Source: Candidatus Thorarchaeota archaeon (GTDB taxonomy: Archaea > Asgardarchaeota > Thorarchaeia > Thorarchaeales > Thorarchaeaceae). Taken from it: a stretch of 16,928 nt of DNA. Below are positions 6,169 to 10,232 of this stretch, piece by piece. The DNA lies in contig JBHLQM010000068.1 in assembly GCA_048884785.1 (NCBI GenBank), positions 1-16,928 on the forward strand, read 5' to 3'. Each line of letters starts with the position of its first letter. Within the stretch, counting starts at the first letter, position 1. The notes beneath the pieces are model-generated. The model was not told the origin of the DNA. It ran no database searches and saw only the letters and a list, made by a program, of their open reading frames with translations. The position numbers and the translations under genes were made by a program.

Positions 6169-6193
6169 GGTTCGGGCTCTATTGGCCCGAACC
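6169..6193. terminator. GC-rich hairpin between convergent atpI and the 774-aa gene
   Basis: GGTTCGGGC (6169-6177) / GCCCGAACC (6185-6193): perfect 9-bp stem, 7-nt loop. Confidence 0.55.
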
Positions 6194-8503
6194 TCCAAGG
6201 TATAGAGCAATAAGCTCAGGTTCACCCTTATAGGTCGGCTCTTTGTCCATACTGATACGCTGGCGATTATCCCAGATACTTCTTGCAAGAAGATCTGCAG
6301 TTCTTGCCTTTCCATCAACATTCTGAGCTGCTTGCATATCTCCTACTTGTTGGAAGACCTGGGCTGCTACTGTATAGTTGCCAACTGCTTCTCTCAATTG
6401 ATCCTTTGCCTCGTCGAAATATCTGCTTGCCTTGTTCTTCTCGCCCTTTTTCGAGAGATATTCGCCCATGAAGTCACTTTTTGCCCCTTCAAGACGATGC
6501 TGGTCTCCCTTGAATTTCATTACCACGCCTCGTAGTTGCTGTACCTGAGACTCAACATTGTTCTTTTTCCTGATCATCTCTCCAGCAACACTATCCAACT
6601 CATCTGCAGCTCGCTCGAATGCCGCAACTGCGTGCATAATTCTTGAAATGGTTGAATCATGGGCCTTGAGAGCAACCTCAATGTTTTCATTATCATCATC
6701 GAAAATTGCCAGTTCATCCTCCAATCGGGTGAACGCATTTGCTCGCTCAATCTGCGCCCGAAACGCCCATTGCTCGGATTGCCTTGAGAAGACCTGTGCC
6801 TCCGATGCATAGGCTGTTGCCAAGGCGAGTTTCCCTAAATCTGTGAGCTCATTGGCAACGTCTTGACTTCCAATCACTCGATAGAATGCCGCAGACTCTG
6901 CTGCGTGGAGATTCTCAAGTATTCGCGACATGATGAACTTGACACCGTGCTGAAGATTGGCGCTAAGTCTGAATTGAATGACGTATTTTACATTGTTGAG
7001 TATTGCAAGAGTTTGGTTTCTGAGCTTTCCAACATCGTCATCATCCACTTCAAGGCTTAATAGAATTCCCAAACTGGTGAGTGCTTCACGTATACCCTCT
7101 AGCGACTCCGAAGGGTCTTCATTCATACTTGCTCGTGCTGAGTCCAACGCCTTGCTAACATCCTGAATGAGACCCTCCTTCCTAAGATCCTTCGCGAAAT
7201 CTATCTGTTGAGCAATGCCTGTTGCATCCTTTGGCTTCTTCTTTAGAAGTTCTTCAACGAAGGAGAAAATCCTTAGGTTCTCACGAATTGCGGCAGTTAG
7301 TGCTCTCGTCTTAGATAGGTTCTCTGCTTTCTTTAGGTCCTTGAAGATCTCATCTAATACTTTGAAAGCTTCATCAATATTATTCACTACAAGAAGTTCT
7401 GAGAGTGTCCGGACCGAAGCCTCTGCTTTGCAGAAGAAAGCCTGTGCCCTGTTTTGTTCTTTATCAATCCGTGACTGTTCTGCATTTCCCTGCAATGTCA
7501 CGATTTCTGTAAATAGCTTCTCGGCCCTGCCAAATGCGTCAGAAGATGTCTGATATAGTTTCGAAGCATCTTCTAAATTTCCAGCACGCATTTGCGCCTC
7601 TGCAATGTCATTGTAGGTCATGCCAAGATACACTTCGCTGAGTCCTGCAGTGTTGTTCTTCCATGCCTTTAGGGTAGTTAGCTTTTGTTTATCGAGTGAT
7701 TTGGATTTCTTGAAATGGGGAATCGCCTCATTATAGAGGTCTGTTGCCTGCTCAAATATGAATGAGCTAAGAATGTCTCGCCAAATGAGTTCATCAAAGG
7801 GATTGAATGCTTGCCTAAAGACACTCTCTTGCCCAATTAATTCATTGACAAACTCATCATAGAATTCGGCTTCTGCCGCCTTGTTCTTACCGAGAATCTC
7901 TGAGAGTTCATGACCATCTTTTTCTGCAGCTTCCTCAACCAGTCCATATGCCTTGAATCCCAGAGCTACCCTTCGAAGTTTTTGAGTTCCATCCACAGAT
8001 TCCGGAACAGCTGAGAAAGGCTTCTCTAGCATGGTGTAGACCGCAGCTAGGTGTCTTGATGCGCTTCTTTGCTTGTCTTCATGTTCTTGCTCAATGAAAG
8101 GACCACTTGCGGCGGCGGCTTGATGCAGCCATGCAAGCACCTTGGCCATCCAAACATCTGCAAGATTCGTCTGTGCCTGAGCCTGGATCTCCTTCATTGC
8201 CTCTTCTAATTGCTCTCGTGTTTCACCATCAGCTGTTGCAAGCCTATTTCTGAGGTATGCAAGGTCGAAATCCTCGCCCATGATTTCCTCTGAGAAGTTT
8301 GCCACTTCATCATAGAGTTTGGTAAATGCATCATGAAGGGCAATTCGTTTCTGCTCAAGCCCATCCTTATCGTCAATATCGTGGAGTGCAAATTCCCTTA
8401 CTGCATCTTGGGCTGTTCTGTTTAAATCATATAATTTGCTTGTGTACACAGTAGCTTTGCTATCCTTAGTTTCCGAACGACCCTTTTTACCCGAATTGCT
8501 CAT
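6179..8503 (-). CDS. Large alpha-helical repeat (TPR/SNAP-like solenoid) protein of unknown function
   Basis: 774-aa ORF rich in A/E/L/K with helical-repeat motifs (AEAQMRAGNLEDASKLYQTSSDAFGRAEKLF; SKKGEKNKASRYFDEAKDQLREAVGNYTVAAQVFQQVGD); GGGGGTG SD upstream. Confidence 0.75.
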   Translation of the reverse strand: MSNSGKKGRSETKDSKATVYTSKLYDLNRTAQDAVREFALHDIDDKDGLEQKRIALHDAFTKLYDEVANFSEEIMGEDFDLAYLRNRLATADGETREQLEEAMKEIQAQAQTNLADVWMAKVLAWLHQAAAASGPFIEQEHEDKQRSASRHLAAVYTMLEKPFSAVPESVDGTQKLRRVALGFKAYGLVEEAAEKDGHELSEILGKNKAAEAEFYDEFVNELIGQESVFRQAFNPFDELIWRDILSSFIFEQATDLYNEAIPHFKKSKSLDKQKLTTLKAWKNNTAGLSEVYLGMTYNDIAEAQMRAGNLEDASKLYQTSSDAFGRAEKLFTEIVTLQGNAEQSRIDKEQNRAQAFFCKAEASVRTLSELLVVNNIDEAFKVLDEIFKDLKKAENLSKTRALTAAIRENLRIFSFVEELLKKKPKDATGIAQQIDFAKDLRKEGLIQDVSKALDSARASMNEDPSESLEGIREALTSLGILLSLEVDDDDVGKLRNQTLAILNNVKYVIQFRLSANLQHGVKFIMSRILENLHAAESAAFYRVIGSQDVANELTDLGKLALATAYASEAQVFSRQSEQWAFRAQIERANAFTRLEDELAIFDDDNENIEVALKAHDSTISRIMHAVAAFERAADELDSVAGEMIRKKNNVESQVQQLRGVVMKFKGDQHRLEGAKSDFMGEYLSKKGEKNKASRYFDEAKDQLREAVGNYTVAAQVFQQVGDMQAAQNVDGKARTADLLARSIWDNRQRISMDKEPTYKGEPELIALYLGGSGQ

Positions 8504-8573
8504 GGTGGCACCCCCAGCGATATTCTCAGGTGAAGGTGCTCAACGTTCTACTTAAGAATAGCTGAACTGGTAC

Positions 8574-8596
8574 GAAAGTAGGACTTTCAGTAAAAA
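8574..8596 (-). terminator. Oligo-T tract plus short hairpin after the wHTH gene
   Basis: TTTTT on the minus strand just after the stop at 8601, followed by the GAAAGT-agg-ACTTTC hairpin (8574-8588). Confidence 0.35.
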
Positions 8597-8600
8597 TCGT

Positions 8601-8975
8601 TTACTCATCAGCTGTTCTGAACTTAACTTCTCTCCCGTCACGATATTTGACGAGTTTTCCATGTTCAACGAGTTTGTTCAGAACTTCGCTGGTGCGCGAT
8701 CTGGACTTACCCCATTGCTCAGCAGCTTCAGTAGCTGTGAGCCCTGATCCAGTTCTTTGAAGGAGGCTCATGAGCCGTATCCAGCTGGCATCTTGGCTCA
8801 GAGCGCTGTCCTCCGCAAAGATGCGGTATTCACTCTCAATGTCCTGAACTTGAATGGAGGATTTTGTCGCGACCTGTGATTTGAGGTCATCAATGGTCTT
8901 TGTAAGATCGTATACGGTGTCACGTAAGACTCGAATTTCCCTTCTGAGTTTCTCGAGTTCCTGCTCTTTCTCCAT
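8601..8975 (-). CDS. Coiled-coil plus C-terminal winged helix-turn-helix DNA-binding protein
   Basis: Heptad-patterned N-terminus (LEKLRREIRVLRDTVYDLTKTIDDLKSQV); HTH and wing GLTATEAAEQWGKSRSRTSEVLNKLVEHGKLVKYRDGREVKF; GAGGG SD. Confidence 0.85.
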   Translation of the reverse strand: MEKEQELEKLRREIRVLRDTVYDLTKTIDDLKSQVATKSSIQVQDIESEYRIFAEDSALSQDASWIRLMSLLQRTGSGLTATEAAEQWGKSRSRTSEVLNKLVEHGKLVKYRDGREVKFRTADE

Positions 8976-8986
8976 CGGATATCCCT

Positions 8987-9352
8987 CTATCCTCTATAGT
9001 TCTTCTTTGACTCCAAATATGCACCATTTTTCCTGTTTTTGAGTGTTTTTAGAGTGTCCTTCTTGTCTTGAAGTCCTAAGTCATCCGGTGGAGAATACTC
9101 CTCCATAACTTCTCTAATCTCTGGTTTATGGGAGGGAACGTCCATTTCAGCCTCAATCACGATTGTTTCGGCTGAACTCTTTATTTCCACCTCTGATGCC
9201 TCCTCAGCTAGAATGGCTTCCATTGCGTTTTTCACACGCACTGTTTCTGCACAGTCTATACACCCATATTCTTCCTTCTTGTTCTTCAAAACTTCTTCAA
9301 GAATTTCTTTTGTTTCTGGGCAGCACTTTTCCCGCTTATGTCTGTATGTCAT
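8987..9352 (-). CDS. Uncharacterised protein with His/CC/CxxC motif, acidic linker and basic tail
   Basis: MTYRHKREKCCPETKEILEEVLKNKKEEYGCIDCAET...; ends 11 bp before the wHTH gene. Start placed at ATG 9352 (alternative 9361); the track's extension to 9478 runs through the promoter repeats and overlaps trmI. Confidence 0.7.
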   Translation of the reverse strand: MTYRHKREKCCPETKEILEEVLKNKKEEYGCIDCAETVRVKNAMEAILAEEASEVEIKSSAETIVIEAEMDVPSHKPEIREVMEEYSPPDDLGLQDKKDTLKTLKNRKNGAYLESKKNYRG

Positions 9353-9365
9353 GGATCTCATACCC

Positions 9366-9419
9366 GCCGTCAGAAATCGACAGTAATCGACAACAATCAA
9401 CAGCCAACAATAATCGACA
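9366..9419 (-). repeat. 10-bp-phased direct repeats TGT(C/T)GATT, candidate operator array
   Basis: Plus strand AATCGACA at 9375, 9385 and 9412, AATCAACA at 9395, with degenerate copies at 9403-9409 and 9366-9372. Confidence 0.85.
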
Positions 9420-9423
9420 ATCT

Positions 9424-9439
9424 GAATATAAGCTTTTGC
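9424..9439 (-). promoter_or_regulatory. Putative BRE-TATA promoter of the Cys-protein/wHTH operon
   Basis: Minus strand GCAAAAGC-TTATATTC immediately upstream of the repeat array. Confidence 0.6.
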
Positions 9440-9446
9440 AAATCGA

Positions 9447-10232
9447 TTATTTCTCCGAGGTGGCCATAGCTCGTGCAAAGGTCATGTACCCTGTGTGTCC
9501 AACCATCCATGTTGTTGGACGTGTTTTTCCCTCCCGTACCATAATCTCCCTCTGCATTACTTCCAATGTCTTGATCATTCCCCATTTGCCACTCTCGCCC
9601 ATTGCTTGACAAGTCTTCATAACTTGCTCCATGGTGGGGCTATAACTGGCAATGAAGTGACTGGGTTTGAGAACCCTATGTGCTTCATCAACGGCTAGCC
9701 ATGGTGTGGCAAGGTCAAGGATTACTGCGTCAATATCACTTTCATGAATGCCCTCTAAGATATCCTTGTGATACATTGTTATACGTTCCATATCGGCATA
9801 GCGTTCAAGATTCTTCTTTGCACCCTCAAACATATCTTCTCGTATCTCATATGTGTAGACATGGCCACTGGGTCCTACAGCTCTTGATAGCACCCACGTC
9901 AAAGATCCGGATCCCGTCCCAGATTCTATAACTCTTGATCCGGCACAGATTCCCGTTTCGCTGATAATTATTGCAGCATCCTTTGGATAGATTATCTGTG
10001 TATTTCTCCCCAAAGATATCTGGATGTCATTCTGACTCGGTTTGTGTATCTGAAAGATAATGCCAGAATGGCTCTCAACTCTGACCCCAAACGGCTGGCC
10101 AATTATATCATCATACGAGATGATTCCCTTATTTGAATGGAATTTTTCACCAGCTTTTACTCTTCTAATCCAATTTCTTTTGGCATCAAGAAATATGTAG
10201 ACGATGCTTCCATCTTCAATCTGCTCTGGCAT
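9447..10232 (-). CDS. trmI: tRNA (adenine-N1)-methyltransferase, m1A57/58 (GCD14/TrmI family)
   Basis: RNTQIIYPKD, ESGTGSGSLT SAM-binding motif, YEIRED, LDLATPW, YSPTMEQV, RPTTWMVGHTGYMTFAR. Confidence 0.96.
   Translation of the reverse strand: MPEQIEDGSIVYIFLDAKRNWIRRVKAGEKFHSNKGIISYDDIIGQPFGVRVESHSGIIFQIHKPSQNDIQISLGRNTQIIYPKDAAIIISETGICAGSRVIESGTGSGSLTWVLSRAVGPSGHVYTYEIREDMFEGAKKNLERYADMERITMYHKDILEGIHESDIDAVILDLATPWLAVDEAHRVLKPSHFIASYSPTMEQVMKTCQAMGESGKWGMIKTLEVMQREIMVREGKTRPTTWMVGHTGYMTFARAMATSEK

Follow-up and report, generated by a model that had tools for sequence, protein, structure and literature searches.

The window analysed here, 16,928 nt in length, is contig C68 (JBHLQM010000068.1) of a 3.6-Mb Thorarchaeota metagenome-assembled genome (MAG; 91% complete), and its minus strand carries a promoter with an array of six short direct repeats in front of two adjoining genes, which we call P1 and P2. 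The array is a functional cis-element, beyond what chance would produce, and our preferred reading, to which we assign a probability of about 0.6, is that it is a DNA operator for P2, a small protein with a leucine zipper and a winged helix-turn-helix (wHTH). The P1-P2 operon would then be self-regulating through a zipper-tethered wHTH dimer, most likely by repression at the start site. The original prediction, made from the letters of the window alone, had described the array as following a TFB recognition element (BRE) and TATA box on the minus strand, and it was found exactly as described. It had also proposed that the wHTH protein oligomerises on the array through its coiled coil, noting that regulators of this kind often autoregulate the adjacent operon, and from the comparisons below we keep autoregulation by this protein as the best reading.

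Repeat array in the P1-P2 promoter

The promoter, the repeat units and the two genes are as follows.

9425-9438, minus strand: BRE (AAAAGC) and TATA box of the P1-P2 operon, GCAAAAGCTTATATTC, with the TATA box CTTATATT at 9425-9432
9366-9419, minus strand: six direct-repeat units with a 10-nt period, family consensus RTTGTYGAYKRT
9412-9419, minus strand: unit 1, TGTCGATT, read from the sequence like the other units
9403-9409, minus strand: unit 2, TGTTGGC, degenerate
9395-9402, minus strand: unit 3, TGTTGATT (in the core-array listing TGTTGATTGT)
9385-9392 and 9375-9382, minus strand: units 4 and 5, both TGTCGATT (in the core-array listing TGTCGATTAC and TGTCGATTTC)
9366-9372, minus strand: unit 6, TGACGGC, degenerate
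9403-9419, minus strand: units 1-2, beginning at +12 and +22 from TTATA and filling -18 to -2 relative to the predicted start
9366-9402, minus strand: units 3-6, the core array across the predicted start and the 5' leader, beginning at +29, +39, +49 and +59 from TTATA
9363-9368, minus strand: GGCGGG, a putative Shine-Dalgarno-like element read from the sequence and fused to the last unit
8987-9352, minus strand: P1, a 121-aa orphan protein (non-conserved in-frame ATG at 9361), from sequence and homologs
8601-8975, minus strand: P2, 124 aa, leucine zipper, flexible linker and wHTH, from Pfam, AlphaFold2 and Foldseek

The BRE/TATA element reads AAAAGCTTATATT, and its TTATA has the first T at 9431. 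The units start at 9419, 9409, 9402, 9392, 9382 and 9372 and are thus 10, 7, 10, 10 and 10 nt apart. The repeat was called independently by TRF (period 10, 3.3 copies, 9371-9403) and by a second repeat finder, which returned a three-copy family at 10-nt spacing. The predicted transcription start is near 9401 +/- 3, with about 30 nt between it and the first T of TTATA. Since mapped archaeal promoters have the 8-bp TATA box at around -31 to -24 (PMC2699501), the core array should start about at the transcription start. The two downstream genes are tightly linked as originally described, with 11 nt between P1 (8987-9352, or to 9361 with the upstream ATG) and P2.

Exact TGTCGATT occurs three times in the 16.9-kb window, all on one strand and within 45 nt, against 0.61 expected per window. 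Across the genome this 8-mer is about as frequent as expected by chance (117 copies in 7.2 Mb, both strands counted), and its tandem form TGTCGATTNNTGTYGA occurs only once, at the array. Clusters of at least three loose units are likewise limited to the array, apart from poly-Asp coding runs, and the array supplied the top matches of a genome-wide scan with a two-unit position weight matrix (PWM). Of 81 family genomes, 40 contained a degenerate three-unit pattern, each of them at just one locus, and the reversed control pattern had no match; the matches that were cross-checked against P2 coordinates adjoin P2. The genome scan for further arrays that the original prediction had proposed thus leaves the window array as the sole one in its genome, and no second site or regulon was found by loose-unit clustering, by the two-unit PWM or by the three-unit pattern across the 81 genomes.

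Conservation and geometry across Thorarchaeota

The larger comparison covered 71 species-level Thorarchaeota loci, 57 of them with a recognisable TATA box. Two to six strict units were present upstream of the P1 start in every one of the 71, whereas only 32 of 730 windows drawn at random from these loci had at least two. The original prediction depended on the repeat being kept upstream of orthologs, and no locus lacked it; a conserved array in the promoter of the regulator's own operon, the feature that characterises an autoregulatory operator, was therefore general in this set. The gene order TrmI-P1-P2-P4 is conserved, trmI being the upstream tRNA methyltransferase gene and P4 the gene that follows P2 (both described below), and a P2 ortholog was found in 24 of 24 sampled family genomes and in the sole genome of the second family in the order. 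The units follow the consensus given above in two flavours, TGTCGATTRT and TGTTGACGRY, and are spaced mostly by 10 nt (115 cases), with 7 nt (26 cases) and 13 nt (15 cases) as the other spacings. Because P1 has diverged to 18-53% identity across the species-level loci while the array was kept, the non-coding array is under stronger constraint than the P1 protein.

The position of the array is set by the TATA box. The repeats sit in the interval from the TATA box to the P1 start in every locus with upstream sequence, and an AAA[AG][CG][CT]TTATA[AT] element lies upstream of the array in 57 of the 71 orthologous loci. Relative to the first T of TTATA, the start positions of the units form clusters at +27-29, +37-39, +47-50 and +57-60, and 52 of the 57 loci have a unit starting between +25 and +31. 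The distance from TATA to ATG ranges from 55 to 134 nt (134 in L007), and the array keeps its place with the TATA box, not with the start codon (L007, L012). From the end of the last unit to the start codon there are 4-70 nt (median 13), and the arrays of several orthologs end in TGACGGYGG, 9-13 nt upstream of the conserved ATG. Units are found upstream of the predicted transcription start in 23 of the 57 loci, including the window, which argues for action on DNA over RNA. In the second family of the order (f2, G025), the half-site is arranged as an inverted repeat, TTGTCGACG-gaat-CGTCGACAA, at +26.

Two local variants were seen in this comparison. In one genus (L007, L038 and L054), an inverted copy, TGTTGACGACATTTGTAACGTCAACA, follows the last unit, the leader is about 75 nt longer, and this putative leader folds well (z = -3.9). 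In the genus of G021 (L028 and L029), P4 is on another contig than P1-P2, so that their linkage does not hold universally, and the P1-P2 promoter still has two units at +27 and +37.

The P2 protein

Two segments of P2 were delimited.

8862-8969, minus strand: leucine zipper, residues 3-38, with Leu 10/17/24/31 and Ile/Val 14/21/28/35 heptads
8613-8786, minus strand: wHTH, residues 64-121, with recognition helix WGKSRSRTSEVLN and wing KYRDGR, from 56 homologs

The proposed coiled-coil and winged-helix nature of the second protein was borne out by AlphaFold2, Pfam and Foldseek. Pfam matched HTH_IclR (1.7e-6, 28.2 bits, cutoff 22) and, as a borderline hit over the wHTH only (residues 64-113), MarR_2 (3.5e-6, 27.5 bits, cutoff 27.0). 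The AlphaFold2 model, built on a 56-sequence alignment (predicted local distance difference test, pLDDT, 72), has a helix at residues 2-42 and the wHTH at 64-121, and residues 39-61 fall below pLDDT 50 as a predicted disordered linker. The wHTH superposes on SmtB/ArsR with a root-mean-square deviation (rmsd) of 1.4 Å over 63 residues, and on MarR proteins, with ZitR/AdcR also among the top Foldseek matches, and a sequence search of solved structures returned only generic coiled coils and ArsR-like wHTH domains.

We do not file P2 as a regular member of the MarR or ArsR family because the dimerisation helices of both are absent. MarR proteins (Pfam PF12802 / PF01047) have about 140-150 aa, and helices on both sides of their wHTH supply dimer interface and ligand pocket, whereas P2 ends in a bare wHTH, and full-length Foldseek superpositions gave an rmsd of 9-11 Å. 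For ArsR/SmtB, the NCBIfam model HTH_metalloreg scored 20.9 bits against a cutoff of 55, and the core wHTH alone superposes, not the alpha1-alpha5 dimer fold with its metal sites. Neither Response_reg nor Trans_reg_C of the OmpR/PhoB type was matched, the N-terminus of P2 being a coiled coil. An assignment to ESCRT-II (EAP30/Vps22-Vps36) was rejected: PF04157 scored 24.3 bits against a cutoff of 26.8 over model positions 134-216, P2 has a single wHTH and not two in tandem (~220 aa), and no ESCRT genes were found in the window.

Conservation within P2 is uneven. The invariant residues among the 56 homologs are W88, G89, S91, R92, R94, T95, S96, E97, V98, L99, N100 and the wing K110-R115 (KYRDGR), and the recognition helix (SRSRTSEVLN) is near-invariant in 25 orthologs, the second family included. 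The zipper and the linker drift while helix and wing are held constant, the linker of about 25 residues being poorly conserved. Within the zipper, L17 and L24 are invariant and L10 and L31 are at least 90% conserved. A heptad pattern of Leu with Ile/Val of this kind favours a parallel dimer by general coiled-coil rules, from which we infer that P2 forms a parallel dimer via its zipper. No conserved Cys or His was found in P2 among the 56 homologs, and no ligand- or metal-binding residues were identified.

Distant relatives and the probable reader of the array

The best indication of which protein binds the array is from lineages other than Thorarchaeota. A search with a distant P2-like protein recovered the same architecture in four other Asgard families. 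One of them, f21, is a distant Asgard family represented by three genomes of one genus (loci L139:610-900 in G081, L140:3860-4150 in G066 and L141:4040-4400 in G074), and its P2 relative has the helix VSRSRASELLN, nearly identical to that of P2. The f21 regulator is divergent from a gene for a TFB paralog (PF00382, 5.5e-38), whose promoter contains TGTCGG, TGTTGAC and TGTCGG at +25, +36 and +46 from TATA, and a further TGTTGAYYCATGTTGATTC pair lies across the regulator's own start. P1 and P4 were not found in the f21 flanks examined. Similarly, TGTTG/TGTCG repeats follow a TATA box at about 30 nt where the relatives are those of G029 and G031, whose helix is ISRSHAS-ILN. The repeats are missing beside the f22 relatives, which carry a different helix (RSRSTTSYHLN). 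Since f21 has the units without P1 or P4 and f22 lacks the units, the motif travels with the type of recognition helix and not with P1 or P4. On these sequence grounds P2 is the best candidate for the protein that binds the array. As a side observation, the f21 TFB gene has no obvious canonical start codon between the upstream stop and the Zn-ribbon.

Proposed autoregulation of the P1-P2 operon

In the proposed mechanism, a P2 dimer would form via the N-terminal leucine zipper, and the flexible linker of about 25 residues would let its two winged-helix domains contact neighbouring units. The invariant recognition helix would read the TGTYGA core and the invariant KYRDGR wing would contact the A/T-rich spacer. 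Two or three P2 dimers could cover 2-6 units, with the bound domains on one face of the helix because the units are 10 bp apart. With the array starting at, or slightly ahead of, the predicted start, P2 occupancy would block RNA polymerase recruitment or promoter escape, resulting in negative autoregulation. Archaeal regulators bound downstream of the TATA box across the start site are typically repressors. That P2 is the binder, its dimer state, the start position and the sign of regulation are what we infer.

Several points weigh against this reading. All the genomes compared are MAGs of uncultured organisms, and the supporting cases from f21, G029 and G031 are small in number and in part related, namely three genomes of one genus plus single genomes. 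The linkage of P2 with P4, a gene without an array, is not accounted for by simple autoregulation. A parallel zipper naively favours palindromic sites, and binding to direct repeats would depend on the predicted flexibility of the linker. A transcription start upstream of all units would place the whole array in the leader, and an RNA-level or dual role may apply, the last unit being fused to a Shine-Dalgarno-like GGYGG and the array filling the leader in many loci.

Alternative readings

The array could work in the mRNA, as a 5' leader bound by P1 (through its basic termini), by P2 or by an unlinked factor, or as a leader that pairs with itself via UCGA and occludes GGYGG, thereby controlling translation or stability. 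We regard this as unlikely. It would fit with the array filling nearly all of the stretch from predicted start to start codon in many loci, with the short distance from the last unit to the codon and the fused GGYGG, and with the pairing potential of adjacent units (GUCGA with UCGAC), L007, L016, L020 and L025 folding at z = -3 to -4.5. However, the mean folding z is only -1.07 across loci, the putative leader of the window is no more stable than its dinucleotide shuffles (z = -0.2), and no Rfam 15 covariance model matched at E <= 1 over 8400-9700. The register of the array with the TATA box, kept even across the long L007 leader, the 23 loci with units upstream of the predicted start, the inversion of the half-site in f2 and the DNA-type wHTH of the co-inherited protein all speak for a site in DNA as well. 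A secondary RNA-level effect may still accompany an operator, in that the TCGA core allows unit-unit hairpins and the last unit abuts GGYGG. It is quite improbable, too, that the array is a DNA operator read by P1 or by an unlinked regulator, with P2 having another target or a protein-protein role with P4. The conserved basic N- and C-termini of P1, the sub-threshold EAP30 match of P2 and its linkage to P4 even where P1 is absent would suit such an arrangement, but the motif follows P2-type proteins into f21 without P1 or P4 and is missing where the recognition helix differs (f22), the invariant helix and wing of P2 parallel the invariant core of the unit, and P1 is predicted to be disordered without a DNA-binding fold. 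Additionally, an array that is single-copy per genome is what would be expected for a dedicated local regulator.

That same single copy per genome could mark a site with a centromere-like or chromatin-organising role, along which the wHTH protein would spread, with any effect on transcription being secondary; short-repeat arrays of variable number and orientation recall plasmid partition sites, and AspA, an archaeal centromere binder, is among the weaker Foldseek matches of the wHTH (rank 39). This option, which the original prediction had raised, has very little in its favour once the neighbourhood is considered: no ParA/SegA-type NTPase is present in the conserved TrmI-P1-P2-P4 cluster, and none of these four genes matches an NTPase family, whereas a partition centromere of the ParB, ParR, AspA or SegB type has a partition NTPase gene and a centromere-binding protein beside it. 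The array measures only 20-60 bp, its position and register are strictly fixed with respect to the TATA box, and the f21 units are in the promoter of a TFB paralog. Finally, it is scarcely credible that the repeats arose by chance or belong to coding sequence, for instance as an N-terminal extension of P1 translated from the TTG at 9478. The window frame is indeed open from 9478 through the repeats, but 13 of 24 loci have an in-frame stop at most 7 codons upstream of the conserved MTY start, the conserved protein N-terminus begins at MTY, the 10-nt period with its 7-nt insertions is incompatible with a reading frame, and nucleotide conservation is above that of the coding region. The original prediction would have fallen if the repeats were translated, and the stops and the frame-breaking indels of 7 and 10 nt indicate that they are not.

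Neighbouring genes and P1

The remaining features of the locus are these.

9447-10232, minus strand: trmI, tRNA methyltransferase TrmI (PF08704, 1.5e-43)
trmI-P1 spacer, 85-95 nt, minus strand: holds the promoter and the repeat array
9441-9448, minus strand: AATCGATT palindrome, overlapping the trmI stop codon (9447-9449)
8546-8558, minus strand: TTCTTAAGTAGAA, near-palindromic promoter-like element before P4, from the comparison of P2-P4 spacers
6179-8503, minus strand: P4, 774-aa TPR-like alpha-solenoid, a context gene, from AlphaFold2 and its linkage to P2 across lineages

The AATCGATT palindrome upstream of the BRE is present as originally noted; it was not found in the orthologous upstream stretches inspected and probably lies outside the regulatory system. 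A perfect 9-nt inverted repeat, AATAATCGA / TCGATTATT (9409-9417 / 9443-9451), brackets the BRE/TATA in the window's genome only, the orthologous upstream stretches inspected being without it. A link of the array to TrmI, considered on account of a faint T-loop likeness of the units, was dropped, the array being kept in L004, L006, L010 and L011, where no TrmI match was found in the available upstream flank.

The N-terminus of P1 is conserved (MTYxHKRxxCxKETKEIL), its middle part is acidic and variable, and its C-terminus is basic (EKKKKRRNYxEFRxDY); the conserved start of the protein is the second ATG, at 9352 (MTYRHKR...). P1 has no Pfam or NCBIfam family, and its 58 representatives among 1.84 billion proteins are all 74-146 aa long and in no case fused to another domain; judged by these searches, P1 is a lineage-restricted orphan. 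Its Atlas model (pLDDT 0.42) is mostly disordered by prediction, with no DNA-binding fold. The H..CC..CxxC motif that the original prediction had pointed out is present in the window's P1. The metal- or redox-sensing role attached to it was rejected, given that CxxC is limited to the window's genus, CC is not conserved, only a single Cys is common and the orphan has no remote relatives.

P4 was found in 26 of 26 family genomes and in the single genome that represents the second family; a protein of 25% identity lies beside the P2-like gene in G029. The P2-P4 linkage persists even where P1 is absent, and P4 occurs beside P2-type genes in three arrangements: co-directional, divergent (G025) and convergent (G029, L030:473-2692). 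P4 is conserved like the housekeeping TrmI (54-83% identity across the family). Its AlphaFold2 model (pLDDT 82) is all-helical; Foldseek gave generic TPR/solenoid matches only (TM score of at most 0.15), and Atlas gave weak SNAP/TPR hints. The idea of a PUF-like RNA binder, suggested by the UGU-containing 8-mers, found no support.

The P2-P4 spacer is 97 nt in the window. Of 19 P2-P4 spacers compared, 16 contain CTTAAGTA, mostly in the form TCTTAAGTAG, and the remaining three have near variants. The P4 start is several tens of nt downstream of this element; the 9-mer TCTTAAGTA has only 14 copies genome-wide. Because this conserved promoter-like element stands in the spacer, P4 is probably a separate transcription unit. 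The window element TTCTTAAGTAGAA could be a TATA box of unusual form or a further specific operator. An array before the unlinked P4 of G021 was considered and rejected, since its two TGTCGAA copies fall in the coding start and are probably there by chance. Many P4 orthologs appear to begin with TTG, and a same-genus ortholog (G004:C106:20875-23163) contains one in-frame TAG, for which a sequencing error, a pseudogene or recoding are possible explanations.

Significance

We found no paper on the motif or the protein, and to our knowledge gene-specific regulation in Asgard archaea, most of which have not been cultured, is almost unexplored by experiment. An autorepressor on a repeat operator is an ordinary class of mechanism, but a regulator-operator pair as clear as this is rare for Asgard archaea. 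The pair is defined and directly testable, consisting of a 124-aa protein and a 10-bp unit with a clear consensus and a fixed geometry relative to TATA, and its architecture is unusual, with a flexible linker that joins the wHTH to a leucine zipper and with direct or, in one family, inverted repeats as the putative target. Another Asgard lineage has the same cassette before a TFB paralog, a hint that it may control which basal factor is used. A bolder view, which we consider a long shot, is that the zipper-wHTH protein and the phased TGTYGA array form an old Asgard-wide cassette, which gates an alternative TFB in one lineage, heads a P1-P2-P4 signal-sensing module (via the TPR scaffold) in Thorarchaeota and possibly acts on both DNA and the mRNA leader. 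If true, this would be a lineage-specific master switch, with a logic like that of the heat-shock factor (HSF), in the closest archaeal relatives of eukaryotes.

Comparison with known systems

The proposed system shares with the ArsR/SmtB and MarR autorepressors the wHTH fold, the location of the regulator in its likely target operon and an operator that overlaps the predicted start, and the predicted operator position is also like that of archaeal repressors that bind downstream of TATA across the start site. In contrast to ArsR/SmtB and MarR, which dimerise through helices packed around the wHTH and bind one palindrome, P2 would dimerise through a separate N-terminal zipper followed by a disordered linker, and its putative operator has 2-6 direct repeats at a 10-bp period. 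OmpR/PhoB proteins place winged helices head-to-tail on direct repeats about one turn apart on one DNA face, as proposed here, but P2 has no receiver domain, would oligomerise by its zipper and would act at an archaeal TATA promoter from a site downstream of TATA.

Repeats of 7-11 bp in variable number in the regulator's own promoter, with cooperative autoregulation, are also known from omega of pSM19035 (where repeats occur in either orientation), ParR/parC and the MraZ boxes. These are bacterial or plasmid systems with ribbon-helix-helix or MraZ/AbrB-like folds and are often tied to partition, whereas no partition ATPase is present here. Among small archaeal proteins, Sso10a and the TrmB family combine a wHTH with coiled-coil dimerisation, and P2 relatives score on Pfam TrmB. 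Their coiled coil follows the wHTH, unlike the N-terminal zipper of P2; moreover, Sso10a has an antiparallel coiled coil and is a general chromatin protein, whereas the proposed target of P2 is single-copy, and P2 is without the sugar-binding domain of TrmB. HSF is trimeric and binds variable-number arrays of alternately inverted 5-bp nGAAn units. Although the domain order is reversed in P2 and a sequence relationship to HSF was not detected, the two have in common, as an analogy, a winged helix coupled to a heptad coiled coil and repeat arrays of variable number.

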